From Acutalibacteraceae bacterium (lineage in GTDB: Bacteria; Bacillota; Clostridia; Oscillospirales; Acutalibacteraceae), in contig CAVHYZ010000002.1 of NCBI GenBank assembly GCA_963640495.1, positions 1-43,426 of the forward strand: a DNA stretch of 43,426 nucleotides. Reading direction: 5' to 3'. A program made the translations under genes and the position numbers. Within the stretch, counting starts at the first letter, position 1, and every line of letters begins with the position of its first letter. Positions 2,988-33,348 of the stretch are shown piece by piece. The notes beneath the pieces are model-generated. The model was not told where the DNA came from, made no database searches, and saw only the letters and a list, made by a program, of their open reading frames with translations.

Positions 2988-4887
2988 TAAAAGCAGCAAA
3001 AAACCGAGCCTTGATTTAAAAGTTCTCGGCAGAATTTTTAAGTATCTTTTTAAATTTTGCCCTGTCTTATTTCCCGTTGCTCTTTTATGTATTGCTTTTA
3101 CGGCTGTTGCAGCTGCAGTGCCGGCAATATTTATTCAAAATATAACTCAGGTTATTGAGGATTGGAGCAAAACCGGCAACTGGGAAGGAGCAAGAGAAAT
3201 TATCATTTCAAAGCTTGTTTTGCTTGTGGGAATGTATATACTTTCCATTCTTTCCGCTACTGCATATAACCAGCTTATGGCATATATCACTCAAGGCTTC
3301 CTTTGCAAAATGAGAGGAACCATGTTTGAAAAGATGCAAAGCTTACCCATCAAATATTTTGACACCCATAAACACGGGGATATAATGAGCTACTACACCA
3401 ACGACATTGATACTCTTCGTCAGCTCGTTTCCCAATCTGTTCCCACTCTTGTTCAAGCAATAATTATTGTAATAGCTGTTCTCTTTATCATGATTTATTA
3501 CAGCATTTGGCTTACTGCCATTGTGCTTGTCAGCGTTGTTTTAATGACTCTTATTTCCGGCAAAATCGGCGGAGGTTCGGCAAAATATTTCCTTCGCCAG
3601 CAAATTTCTCTCGGTAAAACAGAGGGATACATTCAGGAAATGATGAACGGTCAAAAGGTTGTCAAAGTTTTTAATCATGAAGAAAAGAGCCAACAAGATT
3701 TTGATGAAGTAAATGAAGCCCTTTTTCATGATGCGTTCAGAGCGAATGCTTACGCCAATACACTTGGCCCGATTATAATGAATTTAGGCAACCTGCTCTA
3801 TGTTTTAATCGCCGTTGCCGGCGGCCTGTTTATGATTACGGGAGCAAAAAACATCAGCATTTCCGGTATGGCAATGAGTGTAAGCATTATTGTTCCGTTT
3901 CTTAATATGACAAAGCAATTCACCGGCAACGTAAATCAGCTTTCGCAGCAAATAAATGCCGTTGTTATGGCTATGGCGGGTGCAAACAGAATTTTCTCCA
4001 TTATTGACGAAGAATCGGAAACAGACGATGGCTATGTTACTCTTGTGAATGCATCAATTGCTCCGGACGGCACTATTACCGAAACGGACAAACGCACAGG
4101 CAGGTGGGCCTGGAAACACCCTCACCGTGACGGCACTGTTACTTACACAGAGCTTAAAGGCGATGTAAGAATGTTCAATGTAGACTTTGCTTATGTTGAA
4201 GGCAAAGATGTCTTACACGACGTTTCCGTTTATGCAGAGCCCGGCCAGAAGGTTGCTTTTGTAGGCGCAACGGGTGCAGGCAAAACCACAATTACAAATC
4301 TTATAAACAGATTTTATGATATTGCCGATGGCAAAATTCGCTATGATGGTATAAATATCAACAAAATTAAAAAAGCAGATTTAAGGCGTTCTTTAGGTCT
4401 TGTACTTCAAGATACAAACCTTTTCAGCGGCACGGTTATGGATAACATCCGTTATGGCCGCCTTGATGCAACAGACGAAGAATGTATTGAAGCAGCTAAG
4501 CTTGCCGGTGCAGATGATTTTATTACCCGTTTGCCCGGAGGCTATAATGCAGAGCTTGCAAATAACGGCTCCAATCTTTCTCAAGGTCAAAGACAGCTTA
4601 TTTCAATTGCCAGAGCTGCCGTTGCCGACCCCCCGGTTATGATTCTTGATGAAGCAACATCTTCCATTGATACCCGTACAGAAGCCATTGTTCAGCGAGG
4701 TATGGATAAAATCATGGAAAACAGAACGGTATTTGTAATCGCTCACAGGCTTTCAACCGTTAAGGATTCCGATGTTATTATGGTGCTTGACCATGGCCAT
4801 ATTATTGAGCGTGGCAATCACGAACAGCTTATAACCGAAAAAGGCACATATTACAGCTTATATACCGGTGCTTTTGAACTGGAATAA
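2980..4887 (+). CDS. Heterodimeric ABC exporter, TMD-NBD subunit with consensus site
   Basis: Walker A GATGAGKT, signature LSQGQ, Walker B ILDE, switch IAHR. ATG 2980 follows GGAGGTG and overlaps the upstream stop. Confidence 0.92.
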   Translation: MPDKSSKKPSLDLKVLGRIFKYLFKFCPVLFPVALLCIAFTAVAAAVPAIFIQNITQVIEDWSKTGNWEGAREIIISKLVLLVGMYILSILSATAYNQLMAYITQGFLCKMRGTMFEKMQSLPIKYFDTHKHGDIMSYYTNDIDTLRQLVSQSVPTLVQAIIIVIAVLFIMIYYSIWLTAIVLVSVVLMTLISGKIGGGSAKYFLRQQISLGKTEGYIQEMMNGQKVVKVFNHEEKSQQDFDEVNEALFHDAFRANAYANTLGPIIMNLGNLLYVLIAVAGGLFMITGAKNISISGMAMSVSIIVPFLNMTKQFTGNVNQLSQQINAVVMAMAGANRIFSIIDEESETDDGYVTLVNASIAPDGTITETDKRTGRWAWKHPHRDGTVTYTELKGDVRMFNVDFAYVEGKDVLHDVSVYAEPGQKVAFVGATGAGKTTITNLINRFYDIADGKIRYDGININKIKKADLRRSLGLVLQDTNLFSGTVMDNIRYGRLDATDEECIEAAKLAGADDFITRLPGGYNAELANNGSNLSQGQRQLISIARAAVADPPVMILDEATSSIDTRTEAIVQRGMDKIMENRTVFVIAHRLSTVKDSDVIMVLDHGHIIERGNHEQLITEKGTYYSLYTGAFELE

Positions 4888-4904
4888 AAATTATCTTTAG
4901 AGAG

Positions 4905-4942
4905 AAAAATCTCCGCTCAACCATTATTGGGAGCGGAGATTT
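4905..4942. terminator. Intrinsic terminator between the convergent ABC and vor operons
   Basis: AAATCTCCGCTC (4907-4918) / GAGCGGAGATTT (4931-4942) with A/T flanks. Confidence 0.8.
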
Positions 4943-4954
4943 CTAATTTTAATT

Positions 4955-5485
4955 TTATGAGTTATATCCTGTATCAAGGGCCTTAAAGTTAATTTCTTTA
5001 AGGTTTGCTTTTCTTGCGGAAACGATCTTATCAAGAGCCTTATCAATATTATTGTAGGGCAAAACACCGGTTTCTTTGATAAGTTTGCCGGTGATAATCA
5101 TATTTGCAAGAGTGGGAGCACCGATTTCTGCTGCAAGGCGAGTAGCGGGAATGTAATAAACATCAACATCCGTTCTCTTAACCTTTCTCTCAATGAGGGT
5201 GGAATCAACAAAAATCTTGCCGCCGGGAACAACTGCATCTTCATATTTATCAAGGGAAGGAAGATTCATAACAACAAGCACGTCGGGCTTTGCAACGATA
5301 GGTGAACCTACGGGTTCATCGCTGATTATAACGCTGCAGTTTGCAGTGCCGCCTCTCATTTCAGGGCCGTATGAAGGGAGCCAGCTGAGCTGCTTATTTT
5401 CAAGAAGTGCTTTGTATGCAAGGAATTTACCTGCGAAAAGAACGCCTTGACCGCCGAATCCGGCAATAAGGATTTCAGTAGTCAT
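4955..5485 (-). CDS. 2-oxoacid:ferredoxin oxidoreductase gamma subunit
   Basis: AGFGGQG and SYGPEMRGG motifs; start MTTEIL at 5485 after GGAGG. Confidence 0.92.
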
Positions 5486-5486
5486 A

Positions 5487-6242
5487 TTATTCGGCCTCCT
5501 TTGCTGCGCTTCTGTCCTTATAAACACCGAGAGGATAATAAGGAATCATCTTTTCATCAATCCATTGAAGAGCCGCATCGGGAGTCATGCCCCAGTTTGT
5601 GGGGCAGGAAGATACAACCTCAACAAGTGAGAAACCTTTGTTGTTAACCTGATTTTCAAAAGCCTTTTTAATAGCTTTCTGAGCCTGTTTAACATTCTTT
5701 ACGTTGTTAACGGCAACACGGGCAATATACTCGGGGCCGTCAAGGGTTGAAAGAAGCTCGCAAATTCTGATTGGGAATCCTGCAGTAGTAACATCTCTGC
5801 CGTAAGGTGAAGTCTGAGTAACCTGGCCGGGAAGAGATGTAGGAGCCATTTGGCCGCCTGTCATACCGTAAATTGCATTATTTACGAATATGATTGTAAT
5901 ATTTTCGTTTCTTGTGGCGGAGTGAACGGTCTCTGCCATACCGATTGAAGCAAGGTCGCCGTCACCCTGATAGGTGAAAATAATATTTTCGGGTAAAGAC
6001 CTTTTAAGGCCTGTTGCAACTGCGGGAGCTCTGCCGTGGGCAGCCTCTACCATGTCACAAGTGAAATAATTATAAGCCATAACTGCACAGCCAACGGGTG
6101 CTACGCCGATGGTTTTACCCTCTATTCCCAGCTCATCAATAGCCTGTGCTACAAGACGGTGAATAATGCCGTGAGTGCAGCCGGGACAATAATGAAGGGG
6201 AGCATCTGTCAAACTTTTCGGTTTTTCAAAAACAACTGCCAT
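5487..6242 (-). CDS. 2-oxoacid:ferredoxin oxidoreductase beta (TPP-binding) subunit, VOR-like
   Basis: [11 protein letters not shown] motif GDGD...NN, YGMTGGQ, SCPTNW. Confidence 0.93.
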
Positions 6243-7303
6243 TATTTGTTACCTCCTGCTGCTTTTTTTATTGATTCAAGAACCTGCTCCGGTGCGGGAA
6301 TCATACCACCTGCTCTATTGCAAAGAGTTACGGGAACCTTACATTCTGCTGCAAGGGTAATATCCTCAATCATCTGGCCCATTGAAAGCTCAACGGAGAT
6401 AATTTCTTTGCAATGTGTTGCTGCTTTTGCAATAGGTGCTTTGGGGAATGGCCAAATTGTAATGGGTCTGATAAGGCCGGCTTTAATGCCTTGTTTTCTT
6501 GCCTCAACAACAGCATTTCTTGAAACACGAGCAGCGATACCGAACGCAACAACGCAGATTTCAGCGTCATCCATCATAAACTCTTCATATCTTACTTCGT
6601 TTTCTTCAACAGCCTTATATCTTTCGTATCTCTCAAAGTTTACTTTTTCAAGTTCTTCGGGAACAAGGTAAAGAGAATTGATAATATTGTGCTTTCTCTT
6701 CATTTCCGTGCCGGTAACAGCCCAAGGCTTTTCAATCATCTTAGGCGCTGTTTCGGGAAGCTCAACAGGCTCCATCATCTGGCCCATTGTGCCGTCTGCA
6801 AGAAGCATTGCGGGCATTCTGTATTTATCGGCAAGCTCAAAAGCAAGGCCGGTAAGGTCTGCCATTTCCTGAACCGATGCAGGGGTAAGAACGATAAGGT
6901 GATAGTCACCGTGTCCGCCACCCTTTGTTGCCTGGAAATAATCGGACTGTGAAGGCTGAATGCCGCCAAGGCCTGGGCCACCTCTTTGAACATTTACGAT
7001 AAGTGCGGGAAGGTCTGCACCTGCAATATAGGAAATACCTTCCTGTTTAAGTGAAACTCCGGGGCTTGAGGAAGAGGTCATAACTCTCTTACCTGTGCTG
7101 GAAACCCCGTATACCATGTTGATTGCAGCAATTTCGCTTTCAGCCTGAAGGAAGGTTCCACCGATTTTAGGCATTCTTTTTGCCATATAAGCAGCAAGCT
7201 CGGTTTGGGGAGTAATAGGGTAACCGAAATAGTGCATACAGCCTGCTCTTATAGCAGCCTCTGCAATAGCCTCGTTACCTTTCATAAGAACTTTTTCAGA
7301 CAT
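6242..7303 (-). CDS. vorB: 2-oxoacid:ferredoxin oxidoreductase alpha subunit, 3-methyl-2-oxobutanoate (VOR) type
   Basis: [35 protein letters not shown] and KGGGHGDY, typical of the VorB-type alpha subunit. Confidence 0.88.
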
Positions 7304-7308
7304 TTATC

Positions 7309-7521
7309 TCACACTCCTTTTTCTACTGTAATAACGCAGTCAGGGCACATAGTTGCACAGAAAGCACAGCCTATGCACTTGCTTTGGTCAGTCATTTCGG
7401 CGGGAGAATGTCCTTTTTTATTGATCTTATCCTTTGCAATTACAAGTATCTGCTTTGGGCAAGCCGAAACGCAAAGCCCACAGCCCTTGCATAAATCCGT
7501 GTCAAAGGTTACTTTGTTCAT
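7309..7521 (-). CDS. 2[4Fe-4S] ferredoxin, delta subunit of the oxidoreductase
   Basis: Two CxxCxxCxxxCP motifs (CKGCGLCVSACP and CIGCAFCATMCP). Confidence 0.93.
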   Translation of the reverse strand: MNKVTFDTDLCKGCGLCVSACPKQILVIAKDKINKKGHSPAEMTDQSKCIGCAFCATMCPDCVITVEKGV

Positions 7522-7539
7522 AAAAACACATTCCTTTCG

Positions 7540-8199
7540 TTAATAATATTTTGCCTGAAGCTTAATTGGGAAAATATTTTCTCCTTTTACGCTCCCTGCT
7601 ATAGAGTCCTTTACGGTAGTCATAACAATGGGAAGGCCGGACAGCTTTGATAATTCTTCCGCAAGTCCGTATGTGCCTTCGATATCCTTTGCGGTAGTTT
7701 CTTCTCCTAAATTTGAATTGTTAATGATTCCCGTAAAAGGTACTTTACCTGCGATTTCAATTTCGTGCATAACTTCTATAGAATCTGCGGCATTCTGAGT
7801 AAGAGGCCTGAAGAAATTTGCCACGAAAAAGTTATCATAGTTATTTTCCTCAATTATATAGGGAGTAAATCTGCCAAGGGCGTAAGCGCCTCGGTCGTCA
7901 CCGCCTATATCAAGCACTGCACAGCGATTTTTTTGCTGAAACAAGCCGTAAAGCTCTTGGGGAAGAGCAGGCAAATCCACATTGGTATTTGCATAGTGAG
8001 GGCTTATGAGCCGTATACCGGCATCATTAAGCTCCTTTTCGCTATCCTTTGTGCGAAAATAGGGATTAACTATATCCATATCCGCAATATCTGTTTCTTC
8101 ACCGATGCTTTTAAGCCATAAAGCATAGTTCACAGCAATGTTTGTTTTGCCGCTGCCGTAGTGGCCGCAGAATAAAGTTACTCGCTTATGATTCAGCAT
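7540..8199 (-). CDS. P-loop ATPase (MinD/CobQ-like) of unknown function
   Basis: GHYGSGKT, DMDIVNPYFR, LDIGGD. Probable start ATG 8199 overlaps the ilvE stop (ATGCTGA); ATG 8214 is an alternative. Confidence 0.8.
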   Translation of the reverse strand: MLNHKRVTLFCGHYGSGKTNIAVNYALWLKSIGEETDIADMDIVNPYFRTKDSEKELNDAGIRLISPHYANTNVDLPALPQELYGLFQQKNRCAVLDIGGDDRGAYALGRFTPYIIEENNYDNFFVANFFRPLTQNAADSIEVMHEIEIAGKVPFTGIINNSNLGEETTAKDIEGTYGLAEELSKLSGLPIVMTTVKDSIAGSVKGENIFPIKLQAKYY

Positions 8200-9260
8200 A
8201 CCTTGTGAATCCAATTGTTTTTATCTTCGAGTTTGCCCCACTGGATGCCTGTGAGTTCATCATAAAGCATCTGTGTAACCTCGCCGATTTTACCGTTGCT
8301 GATTTCAAATTCGTCACCCTTGTAGCTGAGCCAGCCGATAGGTGAAACAACTGCTGCAGTGCCGGTGCCCCATGCCTCTTCAAGAGTACCATTCTTTGCA
8401 GCATCCTCAAGCTCGTCAACTGAGAGGAGTCTTTCGGAAACAGTATAGCCTTTTTGCTTAAGAAGTTCTACGCAGCTCTTTCTGGTGATACCGGGAAGAA
8501 CAGAGCCTGTAAGTTTAGGAGTAACGATTTCGCCGTTGATTTTGAACATAACGTTCATTGAACCAACTTCCTCGATGTACTTTCTTTCAACACCATCAAG
8601 CCAAAGAACCTGAGTGAAGCCCTTTTCTTCTGCCTTTTGGCCTGCACGGAGAGATGCAGCATAGTTGCCGCCGCACTTAGCATAGCCTGTGCCGCCTCTT
8701 ACTGCTCTGACGTCTTCGGATTCAATGGCAATCTTAACCGGGTTAATGCCCTCTGCGTAGTAAGCACCGGATGGGGAAAGAATTACAACATACCTTGCGT
8801 TGTGAACTGCGTGAACGCCGAGGTTTTCATCATTACCTATCATGAAAGGCCTGATGTAAAGAGATGTGCCCTCTGAATGAGGAACCCAATCTTTTTCAAG
8901 CTCAACAAGAGTATCGAAAATCTGCATTGCGTCTGCCTCATCAATCTGAGGAAGGCAAAGGCGCTCTGCGCTGTTATTCATTCTTCTGATGTTTTCAATA
9001 GGACGGAATAAAGCAATGTCGCCGTTGACTGTTCTGTAAGCTTTAAGACCCTCAAAAATCTCTGTGCCGTAATGAAGAACACTTGCAGCGGGATGTATGG
9101 GGATATAATCGAAAGGTACGATTCTTGCATCGTGCCAGCCCTTGTCTGCTGAATAATCCATTACGAACATGTGATCTGTGAATACTTTGCCGAAACCGAG
9201 CTTGGATTCATCTGTGGGCTTTGCCTTTGGGGTTGTGGTTTTTGTAATCTTGATTTCCAT
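8193..9260 (-). CDS. ilvE: Branched-chain amino acid aminotransferase
   Basis: LHYGTEIFEGLKAY, YIRP, PLP lysine in AKCGGNYA, EEVGSMN, LPGITR, GTAAVVSP. Confidence 0.96.
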   Translation of the reverse strand: MEIKITKTTTPKAKPTDESKLGFGKVFTDHMFVMDYSADKGWHDARIVPFDYIPIHPAASVLHYGTEIFEGLKAYRTVNGDIALFRPIENIRRMNNSAERLCLPQIDEADAMQIFDTLVELEKDWVPHSEGTSLYIRPFMIGNDENLGVHAVHNARYVVILSPSGAYYAEGINPVKIAIESEDVRAVRGGTGYAKCGGNYAASLRAGQKAEEKGFTQVLWLDGVERKYIEEVGSMNVMFKINGEIVTPKLTGSVLPGITRKSCVELLKQKGYTVSERLLSVDELEDAAKNGTLEEAWGTGTAAVVSPIGWLSYKGDEFEISNGKIGEVTQMLYDELTGIQWGKLEDKNNWIHKVC

Positions 9261-9290
9261 AATAAATCTTCCTTTCTGATTAATTGTATG

Positions 9291-11579
9291 TTAAAGTTTA
9301 TTTCTCATGATTTTGCCGCTTACTGTTTTCGGAAGCTCATCCTTGAAAACAACGAGCCTCGGATATTTGTAAGGAGCGGTATGCTCTTTAACATAATTTT
9401 GAATTTCTTTTTTAAGCTCTTCCGTGCCTTCCGTGCCTTTAACAAGCACTATACTTGCTTTAACAATTTGACCTCTTACCGGATCCGGAGCGGCTGATAC
9501 GCCGCACTCAAGCACATATGGAAGCTCCATGATAACACTTTCAATCTCGAATGGCCCTATGCGGTAACCGGAGGACTTGATAACATCATCAACACGGCCA
9601 ACATACCAGAAGAAGCCGTCTTCATCCTTCCAAGCTGTATCGCCGGTATGATACCAGCCGTTGCGCCAGGTTTCTGCGGTTTTTTCTTCCGAGCCGTAAT
9701 AGCAAACTGCAATACCATGAGGAATGCCATTACTTATATCAACACAAATTTCTCCGTTTTCTCCGGGAGGAACAGGTTTATCATCTGCATCAAGAAGTTG
9801 GATATTAAGGTGGGGAGCAGGTTTGCCCATCGAGCCAACTTTATGCTCTGCGCCTCTGAAGTTTGCAAGTAAAACAGGGCTTTCCGTTTGGCCGAAGCCT
9901 TCAAGAATCTGCAAGCCCGTAAGTTTTTCAAATTGGCGATAAACCTCAGGGTTCAGTGCTTCGCCGGCGGTGGTCATATGCTGGATTGAGGAAAGGTCGT
10001 AATGGCTTATATCCTCTTTTATTAACATTCTGAGCATCGTGGGAGGTGCGCAGAAAGTGGTGATATTGTATTTTGCAAACATAGGCAAAACATCTTCGGC
10101 ATGGAAACGGTCAAAGTCATAAATGAACAGCGATGTTTCGCACATCCATTGGCCGTAAAGCTTACCCCAAGCTGCTTTTGCCCAGCCTGTATCGGATATT
10201 GAGAAGTGAATACCGTCCGGGTCAACATTGTGCCAATACTTTGCAGTATGGAACTGACCGAGAGGATATAAATAGTTGTGAGTTGCGATTTTGGGATAAC
10301 CTGAGGTGCCGGAGGTAAAGTACATAAGCATATAATCTTCACCACAGGGTGCATCTGCAGGTCTGGGATAATGAGAAGAATAAAGAACATACTCATCATT
10401 AAAGGTTCTCCAGCCTTCTCTTTCGCCATTAACAATCATCTTATTGACCATGCCGTCATAATTTTTGAGGGCTTCGTCAACATTTGCACAAACCTCACCA
10501 TCTGCAGTGCAGATAATAGAGGTAACATTTGCTGCTTTGAATCTGTAATCAAAATCATGCACAAGGAGCTGATTTGTTGCAGGGATTGAGATTGCGCCGA
10601 TTTTTTCAAGAGCAAGAGTTGCAAACCAGAACTGATAATGCCTTTTAAGCACAAGCATTACACGATCGCCCTTTTTTATGCCCAAGCTCTTAAAGTAATT
10701 TGCGCAGCGATTTGTGTTTTGCATAACCTCTTTGAATGTGAAGTTTTTATATTCTTTGCTGTTTGAAACATAGTGCATTGCAATTTTGTCGGGGTCTTTC
10801 TTTGCAATTTCATCCATAATATCAAAAGCAAAATTGAAATGCTCATCATTTTTGAATTTAACGGAAATGGGAGTACCGTTTTCGTCTTCTTCAGCATCGA
10901 TAAACTTTTTATAAATGCGTTCTTTAGTATCTTTTGTGCTCTTTTTATGAGGAGCATCAACCTTTTTGGCCACTGTAATTTCCGGAATAGGCTCACCCGA
11001 TGGGTTAAGAACTATCGCATAGAAGCTGCAGTCTTTACCGTTTACGGCAATCATACCGTGTGGTGTGCCGGAATCATAATAAATACTGTCACCGGGGCCT
11101 AAAGTTTCTTTATGCTCACCAACCTGAACCATAAGGTTACCTTCAATAACTATATCAAGTTCTTGGCCGCTGTGGCTTGTAAGCTCAATGCCCTTCTTTT
11201 CGGACTCTTCACTGTATTTGCTTACAACATAAAGGGGCTCGGATATTCTGTTTTTGAAACCGTAAGCCATGTTGTAATAAGTCATACCGTGAGCATCGGA
11301 TATTTTTGGAGCGTCTCCCCTACGGCTCAAATAGTATGAATAAAGTTTCGGGCTTTGGCCCTCAATAATGTTTGTAACATCTACCGAAAAAGCAGATGCG
11401 CACTTATAAAGGAACGCAAAGTTAAGGTCGCTTTCACCGTTTTCACAGGCAAGATATTCTTCTACCGTGGAGCCCGTTTTTTCTGCCATTTGTTCAGGAG
11501 TAAAGCCCTCAATTTCACGAAGCTCTCTAATACGAGCCGCCATTTCTTTGATCTTGGTATCAAGACCGGATATTTCCAT
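9291..11579 (-). CDS. XRE-HTH/cupin fused to a medium/branched-chain acyl-CoA synthetase (paralog B)
   Basis: N-terminal HTH (RIRELRE...YLACENG), cupin (H.GQE, GDSIYYDSGTPHG), then AMP-binding YFTSGTSGYPK, GFGQTE, YHTGD, GRVDD and LPKTVSGK. Start MEISG at 11579 after GAGGTG. Confidence 0.92.
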   Translation of the reverse strand: MEISGLDTKIKEMAARIRELREIEGFTPEQMAEKTGSTVEEYLACENGESDLNFAFLYKCASAFSVDVTNIIEGQSPKLYSYYLSRRGDAPKISDAHGMTYYNMAYGFKNRISEPLYVVSKYSEESEKKGIELTSHSGQELDIVIEGNLMVQVGEHKETLGPGDSIYYDSGTPHGMIAVNGKDCSFYAIVLNPSGEPIPEITVAKKVDAPHKKSTKDTKERIYKKFIDAEEDENGTPISVKFKNDEHFNFAFDIMDEIAKKDPDKIAMHYVSNSKEYKNFTFKEVMQNTNRCANYFKSLGIKKGDRVMLVLKRHYQFWFATLALEKIGAISIPATNQLLVHDFDYRFKAANVTSIICTADGEVCANVDEALKNYDGMVNKMIVNGEREGWRTFNDEYVLYSSHYPRPADAPCGEDYMLMYFTSGTSGYPKIATHNYLYPLGQFHTAKYWHNVDPDGIHFSISDTGWAKAAWGKLYGQWMCETSLFIYDFDRFHAEDVLPMFAKYNITTFCAPPTMLRMLIKEDISHYDLSSIQHMTTAGEALNPEVYRQFEKLTGLQILEGFGQTESPVLLANFRGAEHKVGSMGKPAPHLNIQLLDADDKPVPPGENGEICVDISNGIPHGIAVCYYGSEEKTAETWRNGWYHTGDTAWKDEDGFFWYVGRVDDVIKSSGYRIGPFEIESVIMELPYVLECGVSAAPDPVRGQIVKASIVLVKGTEGTEELKKEIQNYVKEHTAPYKYPRLVVFKDELPKTVSGKIMRNKL

Positions 11580-11604
11580 CAAAAACACCTCTTTTGATTG
11601 GGAC

Positions 11605-11870
11605 AACAAAAAACTCGTCCCAAAGCTGATATACTTTGAGACGAGCATGATATTTCATTACCCGCGGTACCACTCAAATTGTGCAATTCGCACCACTCAG
11701 GCTCTGACAAGCCGTATGCATTCACGCAGCAATCACGGAGAGGTTCTACTCACTTTCGTTTTCTTCCTCCCGGCTCAGAAGCTACAATCTTATGCTGCGG
11801 GCTGACAGCTTACACCAAACCGCTGCCTCTCTGCATAGTCGCTCACACAAGCTCTCTTCGTCAAAGCCTT
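11605..11870 (-). ncRNA. T-box riboswitch (transcriptional), probable Val specifier GUA
   Basis: Minus strand: GA motif GCTTTGACGAAG...CTTCTGAGC, AGAGAG bulge, GGTG loop, stem II AGTA/GAA, T-box AATTTGAGTGGTACCGCG (11663-11680), terminator CTCGTCTCAAAG/CTTTGGGACGAG plus U-tract (11608-11645). GUA (11783-11785) lies one nt before the closing CTTC. Confidence 0.92.
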
Positions 11871-11881
11871 TAATTGTTCAT

Positions 11882-11910
11882 ATAATAAACCAACTTTGTT
11901 TTTTTGTCAA
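11882..11910 (-). promoter_or_regulatory. Sigma-A promoter for the paralog B T-box unit
   Basis: TTGACA-N17-TATTAT directly upstream of stem I. Confidence 0.8.
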
Positions 11911-11971
11911 TATTTAATTTTATACAAAACTACCATAATCAGGTGCCGAGTTTATTGCAAAACTCCCAAAA

Positions 11972-14245
11972 TTAAAGCTTATTTCTCTGGATTTTGCCGC
12001 TGATGGTCTTGGGAAGTTCGTCACGGAACACAACAAGCCTCGGGTACTTGTAAGGAGCGGTATGCTCTTTAACATAGTTTTGAATTTCTTTTTTAAGCTC
12101 TTCGGTACCCTCTGTGCCTTTGGTAAGCACGATGCTTGCCTTAACTATTTGGCCTCTGACTTCATCCGGAGCAGCGGAAACACCGCATTCAAGAACATAA
12201 GGAAGCTCCATGATAACGCTTTCAATCTCAAAGGGCCCTATACGGTAACCGGAGGACTTAATAACATCATCAACACGGCCGACATACCAATAGTAGCCGT
12301 CCTCATCACGCCATGCTGTATCGCCGGTGTGGTAAACGTTGAATCTTCTGCATTCCTCGTTCTTTTCATCTTCATCTATATACTGCTTGAAGAGGCCTAC
12401 CGGGTCGCCGTCCTTAAGTCTGATAACAATTTCTCCTGTTTCACCGTCTGCAACGGGATTACCGTCCGGATCAATAATATCAACATCATACTGAGGTGAT
12501 GCAAGACCCATGGAGCCCAGGCGAGGTGTAGTGCCCACAAGGTTACCGATAACAAGAGTGGTTTCGGTTTGGCCGAAGCCTTCCATAATTTCAAGGCCGG
12601 TTGCCTTCTTAAACTGGATTGCAACCTCCGGGTTAAGAGCTTCGCCGGCAGTGGTCATATGCCTTACGGACGAGAAATCATATTTTGTGATATCTTCTTT
12701 TATAAGCATTCTGAGCATTGTGGGAGGAGCACAGAAAGTTGTAATATGATACTGTGCGAAAAGAGGAAGAATATCTGCGGAATGGAATCTGTCGAAATCA
12801 TAAACGAATACTGCACCCTCGCACATCCACTGGCCGTAGAGTTTGCCCCAAAGAGCTTTACCCCATCCTGTATCGGAAATTGTAAAGTGAAGGCCGTCTT
12901 TTTCGCAGCAATGCCAATATTTAGCCGTTACGAAATGACCGAGAGCGTAGGTGTGCTTATGCTCAACCATCTTGGGGTTGCCGGTTGTGCCGGACGAGAA
13001 GAAGATAAGTGCCGTTTCATCTCCGCCGGGAGTGTCCTCTGTTCTGGGGAAGTGAGAGGAGAAGCGGGGATATTCTTCATCAAAATCATGCCAGCCCTCT
13101 CTCTTGCCACCGACAAGAATTTTATTAACAACAGATGGACATTTTTCGGCTGCCCTTTCTGCTATTTCACAGGTATCGCCAAAAGAGGTGCAAACTATTG
13201 TGTTTACATTTGCGACATTATATCTGTATTCAAAATCATGATCTTTAAGCAGATATGTTGCAGGGATTGCAACTGCGCCCATTTTGTGAAGGGCTACCAT
13301 TGCAAGCCAGAATTGATAGTGACGTCTGAGCACAAGCATAACTCTGTCGCCCTTCTTAATGCCGAGGGACGCAAAGTAGTTTGCAACTCTGTCGCTTTCC
13401 TGCATAATTTGCCTGAATGTATATCTTCTTTCAACCTTATTCACATCAAGGTGAATCATTGCAAGCTTATCGGGATATTTTCTTGCGATGGCGTCAACAA
13501 CATCATAACCGAAGTTGAATTTTTCGGTGTTTTCGAAGTGTATGCTCTTAAGACAACCGTTTTCATCTTCAACACATTTTGCGTATTTGTCAACGATAAG
13601 GTCTTTTGAGTCTTTTGCTGCTTCAATTATTTTACGGGTTTCTGTCGATTCTTTCTTTTCACCGGGAAGAATCATAGCTATAAATGTGCAATCTTTGCCG
13701 TCAACGGCTATCATGCCATGAGGTGTTGAGGAATTATAAAAAATACTGTCTCCCTCGTGAAGCAACTCCTGTTTTGTGCCTACCTGAACAAGAAGAGTGC
13801 CGGAAACAACAAAGTCAAATTCCTGACCGTCATGCTTTGTAAGGTGAATGGGCTGATTTTGGAGCTTTTCGTCATACTCATATGTTACATAGTAAGGCTC
13901 GCCGATTCTGTCTTTGAATTTAGGAGCCATATTTTGAATTGTGATGCCCTCTTCTTTTGCTGTAACTTCGCCCTTACCCTTTCTTGTAACAGTATAAGAT
14001 GAAAGGCGGGCAGTGCTACCCTCAAGGAGCTCGGTGATGGTGATGCCGAAAACTATTGAGCACTTATGAAGGAAAGTAAAGGGGAGGTCTGAATCCCCCT
14101 TTTCGTACTTAACATAATCCTCGGTGGTAACTTCTGTTTTCTCGGCCATCTCTTCCTGTGAGTAACCGAGAATATCTCTCATTTCCTTAACTCTTGCAGC
14201 TATCTCCGACAATCTGCTTGCTTCGTTAATTACTTTTGCGTCCAT
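11972..14245 (-). CDS. XRE-HTH/cupin fused to a medium/branched-chain acyl-CoA synthetase (paralog A)
   Basis: Same architecture as 9291-11579: FFSSGTTGNPK, GFGQTE, YHTGD, LPKTISGK. Start MDAKV at 14245 after AAGGAGG. Confidence 0.92.
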   Translation of the reverse strand: MDAKVINEASRLSEIAARVKEMRDILGYSQEEMAEKTEVTTEDYVKYEKGDSDLPFTFLHKCSIVFGITITELLEGSTARLSSYTVTRKGKGEVTAKEEGITIQNMAPKFKDRIGEPYYVTYEYDEKLQNQPIHLTKHDGQEFDFVVSGTLLVQVGTKQELLHEGDSIFYNSSTPHGMIAVDGKDCTFIAMILPGEKKESTETRKIIEAAKDSKDLIVDKYAKCVEDENGCLKSIHFENTEKFNFGYDVVDAIARKYPDKLAMIHLDVNKVERRYTFRQIMQESDRVANYFASLGIKKGDRVMLVLRRHYQFWLAMVALHKMGAVAIPATYLLKDHDFEYRYNVANVNTIVCTSFGDTCEIAERAAEKCPSVVNKILVGGKREGWHDFDEEYPRFSSHFPRTEDTPGGDETALIFFSSGTTGNPKMVEHKHTYALGHFVTAKYWHCCEKDGLHFTISDTGWGKALWGKLYGQWMCEGAVFVYDFDRFHSADILPLFAQYHITTFCAPPTMLRMLIKEDITKYDFSSVRHMTTAGEALNPEVAIQFKKATGLEIMEGFGQTETTLVIGNLVGTTPRLGSMGLASPQYDVDIIDPDGNPVADGETGEIVIRLKDGDPVGLFKQYIDEDEKNEECRRFNVYHTGDTAWRDEDGYYWYVGRVDDVIKSSGYRIGPFEIESVIMELPYVLECGVSAAPDEVRGQIVKASIVLTKGTEGTEELKKEIQNYVKEHTAPYKYPRLVVFRDELPKTISGKIQRNKL

Positions 14246-14281
14246 TTGATTTTCCTCCTTTTTGTTAATTGCTTCAGACAA

Positions 14282-14552
14282 AACAAAAAGCCCGTCTCAA
14301 GCATTTTACTTGAGACGAGCCGGAATTTATATTTCCGATACCCGCGGTACCACTCAATTTGCACATTTCTGTGCCACTCTTCAGGTTCTATCAAACCCTA
14401 TGCACTAACGTAGCAGTCACGGAGGGTATCTACTTGCCTTTTGCTTTCGGGCCCTCGGCTCAGAAGGGATAAGAATAAAACATACACTGCCGGGATCACA
14501 GCCCCCCCGACTCTCTGAAAGCTACCTGTTTTTTCCGTCTTCGTCATAGCTT
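14282..14552 (-). ncRNA. T-box riboswitch (transcriptional), probable Ile specifier AUC
   Basis: Minus strand: GCTATGACGAAG...CTTCTGAGC, AGAGAG bulge, GCTGTGA loop, T-box AAATTGAGTGGTACCGCG (14343-14360), terminator GCTCGTCTCAAG/CTTGAGACGGGC plus TTTTT. AUC (14468-14470) is in the same register as GUA of the other leader. Confidence 0.92.
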
Positions 14553-14572
14553 TTACTTATTAAGTTGCGAGT

Positions 14573-14601
14573 ATATTACCACAAACGAATATTATTGTCA
14601 A
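14573..14601 (-). promoter_or_regulatory. Sigma-A promoter for the paralog A T-box unit
   Basis: TTGACA-N17-TAATAT. Confidence 0.75.
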
Positions 14602-14673: not shown

Positions 14674-15177
14674 TTAATTCGGCAAAAAAGTCAAAACACC
14701 GGCTACAATTAAAGCAACTATAACATACATAACAAATCCCCTTACAAATGAGCCGATATGCATTGACGGATTTTGATATAATTCTTTATTGGGAAGAAAA
14801 GAAAAGCGGATTCTTTTTGTGTTTCTCCACCACAAAAGGTCAATTATTACCAAATCAAAAAGGTTTAAGGCTTCACCCATTATTAAGAAATAAACAAATA
14901 CATCCAAAAAGCCATTAAACCCTATTGTGTATTTTAATATAACACCAATAATCAAAAACATAACAGTAAAAAGAATAAGATTCTCTGTAAAAACTTTGGG
15001 AATATTAGCCTCGGCAGGTGCTTTTTCGCCTATGGTTTTATCTTTTCTTACTATATCTTGCACTTCCTTTGGATAGGAACGAAGGCCTCGCAGATTTTTT
15101 TCATCCCCACCCGTATTGATATAGCACATAAGCCACCAAAACAGACATAAACCTATAACTAAACAAGCTTTTACCAT
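14674..15177 (-). CDS. Four-TM membrane protein of unknown function
   Basis: Hydrophobic segments and the motif NLFDLVIIDLLWW, similar to the split gene at 36732-37234. Start ATG 15177 lies 8 nt after GGAGA. Confidence 0.75.
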   Translation of the reverse strand: MVKACLVIGLCLFWWLMCYINTGGDEKNLRGLRSYPKEVQDIVRKDKTIGEKAPAEANIPKVFTENLILFTVMFLIIGVILKYTIGFNGFLDVFVYFLIMGEALNLFDLVIIDLLWWRNTKRIRFSFLPNKELYQNPSMHIGSFVRGFVMYVIVALIVAGVLTFLPN

Positions 15178-15205
15178 AATCATTATCTCCAATCATAATC
15201 ATTCA

Positions 15206-15221
15206 GTTAGTTTGTGCTAAC
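15206..15221. promoter_or_regulatory. Palindromic operator candidate GTTAG-N6-CTAAC
   Basis: GTTAGTTTGTGCTAAC; a near-identical copy lies at 36678-36693 upstream of the homologous gene. Confidence 0.5.
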
Positions 15222-15340
15222 CGCCGTTATTTTATCACCATTTATTTCAAATTACAATGGATTTTATTGATAATTTTTGAATGGTAAAACATTTTATTCG
15301 TCTCAACTTTCTTTACCAATGTGGTTTTTAAAAAAATATA

Positions 15341-15366
15341 TGGTATAATGGTTTAAACACTTAAAC
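15341..15366 (+). promoter_or_regulatory. Extended -10 promoter plus putative ArsR operator
   Basis: TGgTATAAT (15341-15349) followed by the palindrome GTTTAA-acac-TTAAAC (15351-15366). Confidence 0.55.
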
Positions 15367-15379
15367 GAAAGTGCGAAAA

Positions 15380-15484
15380 ATGCCACAAGCAGTATTGATA
15401 ACAGATGCTTCCGGAGGCTTTAGAAAAACTTTTGCCGTGCGTGTTGCGCCCAAAACATTGGTTTCAGTAGCTATTAAGAAATGA
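15380..15484 (+). pseudogene. Remnant of a short-chain dehydrogenase/reductase gene
   Basis: 34-codon ORF MPQAVLITDASGGFRKTFAVRVAPKTLVSVAIKK, resembling the SDR N-terminal ITGASxGxG...FA motif. Confidence 0.5.
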
Positions 15485-15518
15485 CAAGGCAGCCTAACAG
15501 AAAAAGGAAACAAATAAT

Positions 15519-15881
15519 ATGAAGAATTTATTTACAAAAGAAATTGAAAAACTTTCTGCCGATTTTTCGGATTGTGCCAAGGTACTCACTGCAATCGGAG
15601 ATGAAACAAGGCAGCACATTATTTTGGAAATGTTAAAAATGGAAAAGTGTACCGGAGTGCGTGTAGGAGAAATAACCGAAAGGACAAATCTTTCAAGACC
15701 TGCCGTTTCTCATCATTTACAAATAATGAAAGATGCCGGCATAATTAAATGCCGACAGGAAGGTACAAAGAATTATTATTATTTTGACCCGGATATGAGA
15801 ATGCTAAAACAAGTAGATGAAGCATTAAAGCAGATTATTATGATAACAAAGTTGCTACCGGACAGGAGTGGTGAAAAATGA
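15519..15881 (+). CDS. ArsR/SmtB family transcriptional regulator
   Basis: AIGDETRQHII, LSRPAVSHHLQIMKDAG, RQEGTKNYY. Confidence 0.92.
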   Translation: MKNLFTKEIEKLSADFSDCAKVLTAIGDETRQHIILEMLKMEKCTGVRVGEITERTNLSRPAVSHHLQIMKDAGIIKCRQEGTKNYYYFDPDMRMLKQVDEALKQIIMITKLLPDRSGEK

Positions 15882-16057
15882 GCAAAATTCTGATATTTAT
15901 TTTTTACACAGACAGAGTGAAGGTTGACAGAGCAACCCTCTTCGTGTGAAAAATCTCTTGATTATCTCATTGATTGTAAGAATGATCCGAAATGTAAAGG
16001 CGTATTTGTTAATCATGACTTAACCGTTAAAGAACAAACAGTAGAGGTGAACATATA

Positions 16058-16711
16058 ATGAATATTTTTGACATAATGAAAGAAAGACACAGCGTTAGGC
16101 AATATACGGATAAAGCAATTGAGCCTGAGAAGCGTGCAATTCTAAATGAACTTATAGAGGAAATCAACAAAAGCACAGGGCTACACATTCAGGTGTTTTT
16201 TGATGAGCCTAAATGCTTTAATTCCATGGTAGCACATTACGGAAGCTTTACCGGCGTAAATAATTATATTGCCATTGTAGGCAAAAAATCACAAAATTCA
16301 GATGAATCTCTCGGCTATTACGGAGAAAAGATCGTGCTTAAAGCTCAAGAGCTTGGCTTAAATACCTGCTGGGTAGCATTAAATCACGGCAAAAGCAAGG
16401 CTATAATCAATAAAGGTGAAAAACAAGTTTGCATAATTGCTTTGGGTTACGGCAAAACAAAGGGCGTGCCCCACAAATCAAAAAGCATAACAGATGTTTC
16501 AAACTATAAAGAAACTATGCCGGAATGGTTTAAAAATGGCGTAAGTGCAGCTTTGCTTGCCCCCACCGCAATAAATCAGCAAAAATTTCACTTTGAATTA
16601 AAAACTGACGGCTCTGTAAAGGCCTCACACGGCAAAGGGTTTTACACCAAACTTGATCTCGGCATAGTGAAATATCATTTTGAAGTTGTTTCGGGAGTTA
16701 AACCTAATTAA
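16058..16711 (+). CDS. Nitroreductase family protein
   Basis: RHSVRQY, GLNTCW, IALGY, APTAINQQ, DLGIVKYHFE; GAGGTG RBS. Confidence 0.9.
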   Translation: MNIFDIMKERHSVRQYTDKAIEPEKRAILNELIEEINKSTGLHIQVFFDEPKCFNSMVAHYGSFTGVNNYIAIVGKKSQNSDESLGYYGEKIVLKAQELGLNTCWVALNHGKSKAIINKGEKQVCIIALGYGKTKGVPHKSKSITDVSNYKETMPEWFKNGVSAALLAPTAINQQKFHFELKTDGSVKASHGKGFYTKLDLGIVKYHFEVVSGVKPN

Positions 16712-29098: not shown

Positions 29099-29138
29099 TT
29101 TCTATATTTCACCTCCATGTGGAATGTTAAACAATATT

Positions 29139-29258
29139 AAAGCCCTTTCCGCATCTGACGGAAAGGGCATAACATACTTATATTTTGTATGTTTCCTTTC
29201 TCGGCAGGTGGTATATAACCTTTATGCGAAAAGCACCTGCTGTCTTCAAAAAGAACAG
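29139..29258 (-). ncRNA. L10 leader (ribosomal protein autoregulatory RNA) with attenuator
   Basis: AAGACAGCAGGTG...CACCTGCCGAG core followed by the hairpin GCCCTTTCCG/CGGAAAGGGC-TTT upstream of rplJ; promoter TTGACA-N17-TAATAT at 29266-29294. Confidence 0.85.
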
Positions 29259-29317
29259 CGTGGATATATTAACACACAAATTAAGGTGTGTCAAGAAATT
29301 TTTCAGAAAAAATCTGA

Positions 29318-33272: not shown

Positions 33273-33348
33273 GCGGATGTAGCTCATCTGGTAGAGCGCC
33301 ACCTTGCCAAGGTGGAGGTAGCGAGTTCGAGCCTCGTCATCCGCTCCA
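33273..33348 (+). tRNA. tRNA-Gly (GCC)
   Basis: Acceptor stem GCGGATG/CATCCGC, anticodon arm CCACC-TTGCCAA-GGTGG, T-loop GTTCGAG, encoded T-CCA end. Confidence 0.98.

Follow-up and report, generated by a model that had tools for sequence, protein, structure and literature searches.

A 43,426-nucleotide stretch of an Acutalibacteraceae genome (contig CAVHYZ010000002.1; hereafter the window, to whose full length coordinates refer unless another contig or locus is named) carries a locus in which two paralogous genes for AMP-forming acyl-CoA ligases, acsA and acsB, are each preceded by a T-box riboswitch. The second ligase gene is followed by genes for the branched-chain aminotransferase IlvE, a P-loop NTPase and the four subunits of a 2-oxoacid:ferredoxin oxidoreductase (Vor), and the whole arrangement is on the minus strand. 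The locus very probably encodes a tRNA-gated salvage route that makes isoleucine and valine from branched short-chain acids and CO2. Functional statements in this analysis rest on sequence, genome content and published relatives, and the anabolic direction is preferred because the ligases are AMP-forming, the T-boxes are switched on by starvation, no ilvB, ilvC or ilvD gene was found, the leader codons match a residue of the ligase pocket, parallel loci exist in the same genome, the module is enriched in genomes lacking ilv genes, and labeling studies in rumen microbes point to such chemistry.

In the proposed pathway, uncharged tRNA-Ile would permit read-through of T-box 1 and expression of AcsA, which would convert 2-methylbutyrate to its CoA ester while ATP is cleaved to AMP and pyrophosphate. 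Uncharged tRNA-Val would permit read-through of T-box 2 and expression of AcsB, IlvE, the NTPase and the four Vor subunits, with AcsB forming isobutyryl-CoA from isobutyrate. Vor would combine the acyl-CoA with CO2 and electrons from reduced ferredoxin to give a 2-oxoacid, which IlvE would transaminate to isoleucine or valine. A further ligase behind a leucine T-box, on contig C15, probably supplies an isovaleryl arm to the same Vor and IlvE, both of which are probably broad in specificity, with the separately gated ligases setting the product mix. The flux direction, the individual substrates, PFOR or Rnf as source of electrons, and an accessory role of the NTPase (in maturation or activation) are our inferences. 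The original prediction had called the module CO2-fixing and self-contained. The first term applies insofar as one carboxyl group per amino acid would derive from CO2, which does not amount to autotrophy; the second does not hold, as the leucine arm lies on another contig and a separate source has to provide the reduced ferredoxin.

T-box leaders and gene order

In T-box regulation, uncharged tRNA turns the downstream genes on (PMC7778990). Leader 1 (14289..14556, including its terminator) and leader 2 (11613..11873, likewise) both match the full RF00230 model (positions 1-219), including the stem I motifs, the specifier loop and the UGGN bulge, which is part of a UGGUACC sequence in each. At the E-value threshold the first match extends over 14556-14308 with 76.1 bits (E 5.8e-16), the second over 11873-11634 with 75.6 bits (E 7.6e-16); at 76 bits, below the Rfam gathering cut-off of 93, both leaders would be missed by routine annotation. 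T-boxes before thrS-, asnB- and cysE-like genes of the same genome fall below this cut-off as well. The terminators (14321-14289, 15 pairs; 11646-11613, 14 pairs) each share their 5' arm with a foldable antiterminator, giving the competing structures expected of such a switch.

The specifier was taken as the base triplet immediately 5' of the final unpaired base in the specifier loop. By this rule leader 1 reads AUC for isoleucine (ATC, 14470-14468) and leader 2 reads GUA for valine (GTA, 11785-11783). The genome contains 12 RF00230 matches, and the rule, applied by eye, yields the expected codon for all seven of the other T-boxes that have a recognizable downstream gene. We take these genes to be valS, pheS, alaS, trpE, asnB, cysE/S and thrS. 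An eighth further T-box precedes a lipoprotein gene and permits no codon check. Codon variation among relatives is purely synonymous (GTA or GTC before acsB, CTC or CTG before the leucine locus).

A candidate promoter lies before each leader: P1 (TTGACA-17-TAATAT with a TG extended -10, 14601-14573, 10/12), directly before T-box 1, and P2 (TTGACA-17-TATTAT, 11910-11882, 11/12), the best site of the region. The promoter scan as a whole was near chance (28 sites vs. 23.0 ± 4.4 expected), so the credence given to P1 and P2 comes from their position and not from the count; TTGACA also occurs upstream of several related leaders in an alignment. An internal site at 8419-8391 (9/12) is at chance level and was rejected. 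The arrangement foreseen by the original prediction, with a promoter, a T-box and a ligase gene followed by a second such set, is thus present in all its parts, and the T-boxes are of the isoleucine and valine types.

Leader 1 precedes acsA (14245-11972) and leader 2 precedes acsB (11579-9291), which is followed by ilvE (9260-8193), the NTPase gene (8199-7540, 219 codons from ATG 8199, or 224 from TTG 8214), the gene for a 2x[4Fe-4S] ferredoxin-like delta subunit recognized by profile search (7521-7309), and those for Vor alpha (7303-6242), Vor beta (6242-5487) and Vor gamma (5485-4955). The junctions from acsB to the gamma subunit measure 30, -7, 18, 5, -1 and 1 nt, as anticipated for co-oriented genes that are tightly spaced or overlap. 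The closing terminator that had been claimed is represented by a hairpin with a U tail at ~4901-4944 (fold of 4880-4960, -23.7 kcal/mol), which lies just outside the interval originally assigned to the locus. This hairpin stands between convergent genes, is shared with an ABC-transporter gene, and did not appear in the terminator-scan list.

Predicted ligase specificity and parallel loci

Both ligases consist of an N-terminal XRE-HTH domain, a cupin domain and the AMP-binding domains PF00501 and PF13193 (Pfam), with the XRE-HTH and cupin parts encoded at 13660-14245 in acsA and 10995-11579 in acsB. In other relatives the XRE-cupin part is a separate gene adjoining the ligase gene (e.g., 182 amino acids, L036:10848-11393); it had no match in a PDB sequence search at E 0.001 and may act in regulation or as an allosteric sensor. 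The best PDB match of AcsB is 3ETC, the structure of MacsMa (E 2.7e-175), a ligase that makes adenylates of C3-C8 acids, prefers 2-methylbutyrate, and depends critically on Trp259 for substrate binding (PMC10455477). The equivalent of this alternative-pocket Trp is kept, which together with the AMP-binding domains marks the MacsMa type (numbering by an offset of 23, anchored by G459-Y460-K461 of PMC10455477).

A single residue near this Trp follows the leader codon. The sample comprised 115 ligase domains from 100 loci and the window, 89 of them with a leader and 88 with a readable codon. An ATC leader accompanies Gly at acsB position 467 in 40 of 40 ligases, and a GTA or GTC leader accompanies Ala in 48 of 48. 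These readings supersede a first pass with a strict codon pattern, which left 52 of the 115 ligases unlabeled and mislabeled one; in that stricter pass (41 Ile, 21 Val), position 467 was the sole column to pass an 80%/80% split. It aligns with Gly255 of MacsMa, four residues ahead of Trp259, and AcsA keeps the Gly. The Gly may accommodate the extra methyl group of 2-methylbutyrate and the Ala may fill that space, which would match the one-methyl difference between the two acids. AcsA is accordingly a predicted 2-methylbutyrate ligase and AcsB a predicted isobutyrate ligase.

The history of this exchange was approached through two trees. FastTree placed the valine ligases in two groups, which hinted at independent origins of the Val/Ala ligase; in an IQ-TREE analysis of 41 of the 115 rows, all 18 valine rows formed one branch inside the isoleucine rows (support 70/94), and independent origins were set aside as unproven. 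In one relative acsB is split into two frames by one internal TAG (G003, L030:618-2996), through an assembly error or as a pseudogene. There is a slight chance that the module is anabolic with other substrates, the ligases being broad or acting on, e.g., propionate (which would lead to 2-oxobutyrate) and the Gly/Ala split being a lineage accident. The C3-C8 range of MacsMa, a split that possibly arose once, and a Vor specificity predicted by family would all agree with this, but 2-oxobutyrate would still require IlvBCD, which were not found, and the discriminating residue is next to the pocket Trp, where it shows a one-methyl change in the expected direction.

The pairing of a ligase with an amino acid-specific T-box recurs elsewhere in the genome. 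A leucine (CUC) T-box on contig C15 precedes a LeuA-like gene and a gene for an 818-residue acyl-CoA ligase (C15:5721-9872, plus strand; L033:2722-6873), which carries an extra N-terminal domain of ~270 residues and is unrelated to AcsA and AcsB. The LeuA-like protein keeps the C-terminal regulatory region. An alignment of 36 such proteins shows that they are without the arginine/glutamate and His-x-His motifs that we take to be catalytic; no match to the LeuA-like protein was found in a PDB sequence search at E 1e-20. The C15 locus is the probable isovalerate arm, and the LeuA-like/ligase pair adjoins the main locus in many relatives. A tyrosine (UAC) T-box on contig C24 precedes genes for a ligase, the indolepyruvate:ferredoxin oxidoreductase (IOR) subunits iorA and iorB, a PaaK-like protein and a small protein that we presume to be ACT-like (minus strand, L034:4078-10060). 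This locus is the probable counterpart for converting arylacetates to aromatic amino acids. In a related genome (G027, L045:8919-12680) an IOR-like pair and a PaaK-sized ligase are divergent from an NTPase-vor operon, which links the aromatic and branched modules.

These parallels bear on the possibility that the ligases salvage acids for iso and anteiso fatty acids, with the T-boxes acting as proxies for precursor shortage and Vor working oxidatively to provide more primers. The best NCBIfam match of both ligases is MbcS (NF047394; 439.8 and 413.2 bits), which primes lipids in Staphylococcus aureus (PMC11167679), and T-box-less Vor operons are common in relatives. Neither ligase, however, reaches the MbcS equivalog cut-off of 850 bits, oxidation of valine while tRNA-Val is uncharged would worsen the starvation, the tyrosine locus has the same layout and no lipid role, and no other route to branched-chain amino acids was found in the genome. 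Lipid priming is therefore improbable as the function of the locus, while amino acid salvage would be compatible with a minor flow of acyl-CoA into lipids. MbcS takes isobutyrate and 2-methylbutyrate and hardly isovalerate (PMC11167679), which fits the existence of a separate ligase for the leucine arm.

Vor, a putative accessory NTPase and genome context

The aminotransferase passes both equivalog cut-offs for IlvE (TIGR01123, 390 bits vs. 250; NF009897, 481 bits vs. 307), and Vor alpha, named VorB in NCBIfam, passes NF005507 (553.7 bits vs. 399). Vor beta and gamma are family members that pass no NCBIfam equivalog cut-off; among 38 beta subunits, the GDGD...NN motif for thiamine pyrophosphate binding and Cys19, Cys22, Cys52 and Cys213 are invariant.

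The original prediction had described the protein encoded between ilvE and the ferredoxin gene as a P-loop ATPase. The P-loop is evident, with a Walker A sequence GxYGxGKT that is invariant in the alignment, and the fold is of the SIMIBI class; NTPase is a safer name than ATPase. The protein has at least 8000 relatives and no Pfam or NCBIfam match at E 0.001, and its PDB profile matches span mostly the first 45 residues. A structural model built from a 66-row alignment (predicted local distance difference test score 86.7, vs. 30.9 for the single-sequence model) is nearest to FlhF (Z 16.2, root-mean-square deviation 3.1 over 177 residues), followed by SRP/FtsY-type GTPases and then by Get3, BioD, HypB, Cfd1 and MinD. 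For assignment to a named SIMIBI subfamily (MinD/ParA, SRP GTPase, ApbC, CooC, NifH), the comparison extended to Atlas clusters, which bear either CbiA/ParA labels or no label. No Cys reaches 90% conservation, and this makes a carrier of electrons or clusters less likely. It is reasonably probable that the protein is a factor that matures or activates Vor under the control of a nucleotide switch. A fusion search identified seven longer proteins among 7998 scored relatives; the two NTPase-ligase fusions, on one or two short contigs, were discarded as likely read-through or frameshift artefacts.

The source assembly (1.88 Mb, 151 contigs, completeness 98.09%) was searched for the enzymes on which the direction of the pathway depends; a look-up of sequencing runs listed none for the locus. 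IlvD was not found in it by profile search, nor was IlvC, whose weak N-domain matches are other Rossmann dehydrogenases, nor acetolactate synthase (ilvB), the sole TPP_N match being IolD. The original prediction had named the absence of ilvBN, ilvC and ilvD as a check, and it agrees with this outcome. Four relatives with the same layout and 94-100% completeness (G003, G008, G017 and G022) are likewise without ilvD. The BrnQ transporter and [FeFe] hydrogenase were not found in the assembly; nor was HMGL-type citrate synthase, a sign that some genes may be absent from it. Three oxidoreductases of the Vor superfamily are present (a 1201-residue frame of the size of PFOR, Vor and IOR), together with two RnfD-family genes, and PFOR and Rnf could furnish the reduced ferredoxin. 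Contig C96 encodes an aconitase and an isocitrate/isopropylmalate-type dehydrogenase, starting at the contig edge (L035:143-3255); this pair was considered as LeuCD/LeuB and not counted as a leucine pathway, because the first protein passes aconitase models and the second passes none.

The same inventory bears on a catabolic role, in which IlvE and Vor would oxidize branched-chain amino acids to branched acyl-CoA, as in oxidative Stickland metabolism, and the ligases would reverse or recycle the products. The reactions are reversible, Vor alpha scores above the VorB cut-off, and VOR is catabolic in Clostridium sporogenes and Clostridioides difficile (PMC13285125). Catabolic VOR clusters are, however, accompanied by a phosphate acyltransferase and kinase or by an ADP-forming ligase, and ligases of the AMP-forming kind are taken as a sign of synthesis (PMC13285125). 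The locus contains no acyltransferase, kinase or ADP-forming ligase gene and in this differs from an oxidative Stickland VOR cluster; in the whole genome no butyrate kinase and no match to the ADP-forming ligase domain PF13607 were found, and the acetate-kinase family (PF00871) has a single gene, on contig C8. Together with the starvation-on switches and the enrichment of the module in ilv-less genomes, this makes catabolism very improbable, and synthesis of isoleucine and valine is the preferred direction.

Related loci were drawn from at least 498 species genomes encoding a relative of the NTPase, of which the best 80, chosen by closeness and hence non-random, were compared. All are titled uncultured or metagenome-assembled, and most are animal-gut Clostridia, with two spirochaetes. 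The NTPase gene is followed by the ferredoxin and vor alpha genes in 78 of these 80 loci, the other two stopping at a contig edge. Within 9 kb of the NTPase gene, 76 loci have a ligase or its XRE-cupin part and 53 have ilvE. A T-box was detected upstream in 60, by a motif pattern whose loose codon calls were not used because they are unreliable, and a further 16 loci are too short. Gene order is thus conserved in related genomes. Along with the T-box codons and the missing ilv genes, this synteny supports the anabolic direction first proposed. Two variants illustrate other combinations of the parts, an isoleucine T-box directly before ilvE-NTPase-vor (L072, ~5000-6570, upstream part) and an ilvE-vor operon divergent from a leucine T-box locus (L135).

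Co-occurrence with the ilv genes was assessed across 70 order-level genomes, each with a completeness of 92% or more; their kinship makes the counts overstate the association, and P values carry no weight here. ilvC and ilvD coincide, both being present in 31 genomes and lacking in 39. The NTPase occurs in 32 of the 39 ilv-less genomes, and the fused ligase (22/39 vs. 2/31), two or more ligases (31/39 vs. 6/31) and a tandem ligase pair beside the NTPase gene (8/39 vs. 0/31) are all more frequent in ilv-less than in ilv-positive genomes.

Several observations weigh against the proposed pathway. Neither leader of the window has a gathering-level Rfam match, and the base following the isoleucine specifier is C and not a purine. 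The agreement between codon and pocket residue is probably the outcome of one event and at most two, so that 88 of 88 does not represent 88 independent cases. Some VOR-cluster enzymes, e.g., the aryl-specific HpdE, can favor aryl substrates (PMC13285125), and family membership consequently does not fix the substrate of Vor; activities and substrates are predicted from sequence throughout. The genes ilvBCD usually cluster, and one unassembled contig among 151 could hide all of them. The NTPase is also present in 14 of the 31 ilv-positive genomes, and ilvD occurs in 6 of 18 same-genus genomes, though Vor is in all 18. A Vor operon without a T-box, despite enough upstream DNA, is found in 4 of the best 80 closer loci, and no T-box was found at 19 further Vor loci (L036-L054) by motif or, in the five of them tested, by Rfam. 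Lastly, Vor and IlvE stand behind the valine switch only, so that a shortage of isoleucine or leucine by itself would switch on only a ligase gene. Transcripts from P1 should likewise end at terminator 2; basal read-through, co-limitation or an internal promoter are candidate sources of Vor under these conditions.

A stand-alone isoleucine T-box ligase is encoded in several ilvD-positive genomes (G001, G010, G015 and G016). The T-box-less Vor operons and these ilvD-positive carriers point to a salvage route on which some lineages became dependent; with some relatives keeping ilvD beside it, the module is salvage rather than a strict replacement for the ilv pathway. Isoleucine salvage may be its oldest branch. 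In eight same-genus loci (L019, L021, L023-L026, L028 and L029), several of whose genomes keep ilvD, the isoleucine T-box and fused ligase gene lie apart from vor. A broader synthesis can be ventured tentatively, and as a whole it is doubtful. It would comprise an undescribed genome-wide acid-to-amino-acid regulon of gut Clostridia, with each ligase paired with its own tRNA sensor. The valine branch would be a duplicated isoleucine branch with coupled switches (AUC to GUN and Gly to Ala), a dedicated SIMIBI NTPase would mature or activate Vor for uphill carboxylation, and a catalytically dead LeuA would be the leucine-sensing subunit of the isovalerate ligase.

The upstream neighbors (14674-16711) encode an unassigned membrane protein, a regulator of the ArsR type and a nitroreductase, and are not kept beside the locus in relatives. 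An L10 leader (29127-29267, minus strand) and a tRNA-Gly(GCC) gene (33273-33345, plus strand) elsewhere in the window are ordinary.

Relation to known systems

Between 1962 and 1971, Allison and co-workers reportedly described how isobutyrate, 2-methylbutyrate and isovalerate are reductively carboxylated on the way to valine, isoleucine and leucine. The branched-acid requirement of rumen and gut anaerobes has been known for ~60 years from labeling, and the locus supplies candidate genes and control logic for it. It also renders the reaction testable, through five purifiable activities and two RNA switches. If the reading is correct, the annotation of Vor and IlvE as catabolic would need correction in such loci, many uncultured Clostridia would depend on branched acids from their neighbors, which is a hint for culturing, and a one-residue rule would describe ligase specificity; an uncharacterized but very common NTPase would become a candidate accessory protein of an enzyme that incorporates CO2.

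The gene-and-riboswitch arrangement appears to be new, and the chemistry has been known since the 1960s. No paper linking T-boxes to these enzymes was found, and an earlier mention is possible in the surveys of Vitreschak (2008) or Gutierrez-Preciado (2009). The RegPrecise T-box table for 93 genomes (PMC3766115, supplement 2) lists neither a ligase operon nor a vor operon among its Ile, Leu and Val entries, a few of its entries being bare locus tags. Wels (2008; text and three supplements) and the TBDB main text contain no relevant term, and PMC13768988 contributes nothing specific.

Individual elements of the locus have clear precedents. The T-box-controlled ilv/leu operons of Bacillota, such as ilvBHC-leuABCD of Bacillus subtilis, share the riboswitch class, the amino acid signals and a biosynthetic output, whereas the genes controlled here encode acyl-CoA ligases and Vor. 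MacsMa and S. aureus MbcS belong to the same ligase family, the Trp259 equivalent being kept and AcsA sharing the Gly of MacsMa; the proteins described here differ in their XRE-cupin fusion, in forming two paralogues (Gly vs. Ala) and in scoring below the MbcS cut-off, and MbcS feeds lipids. The Bacteroides IOR with an AMP-forming arylacetate-CoA ligase, proposed to be biosynthetic (PMC13285125), follows the same ligase-plus-oxidoreductase logic as the tyrosine locus; its substrates are aromatic, whereas those of the present locus are predicted to be branched, and the term "T-box" is absent from the main text of that article. Stickland VOR clusters of C. sporogenes and C. difficile share the four-subunit VOR type and the aminotransferase step, as described in PMC13285125, and include an acyltransferase and kinase or an ADP-forming ligase in place of the AMP-forming ligases found here behind starvation-on switches.

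A functional parallel is reductive carboxylation in rumen microbes, in which 2-methylbutyrate gives isoleucine and isobutyrate gives valine (as cited in PMC7356843, PMC2812497 and PMC10658910), and in methanogens, for which an anabolic VOR of Methanothermobacter (Tersteegen, 1997, as described in PMC13285125) and a reverse role of VOR and IOR (PMC13285125) have been put forward. The portions of the rumen literature covered name no bacterial gene set or regulation. Activation, ferredoxin-dependent carboxylation and transamination are common to these systems and to the pathway proposed for the window; the difference is that the window holds them in one bacterial cluster, with an amino acid-specific RNA switch before each ligase.

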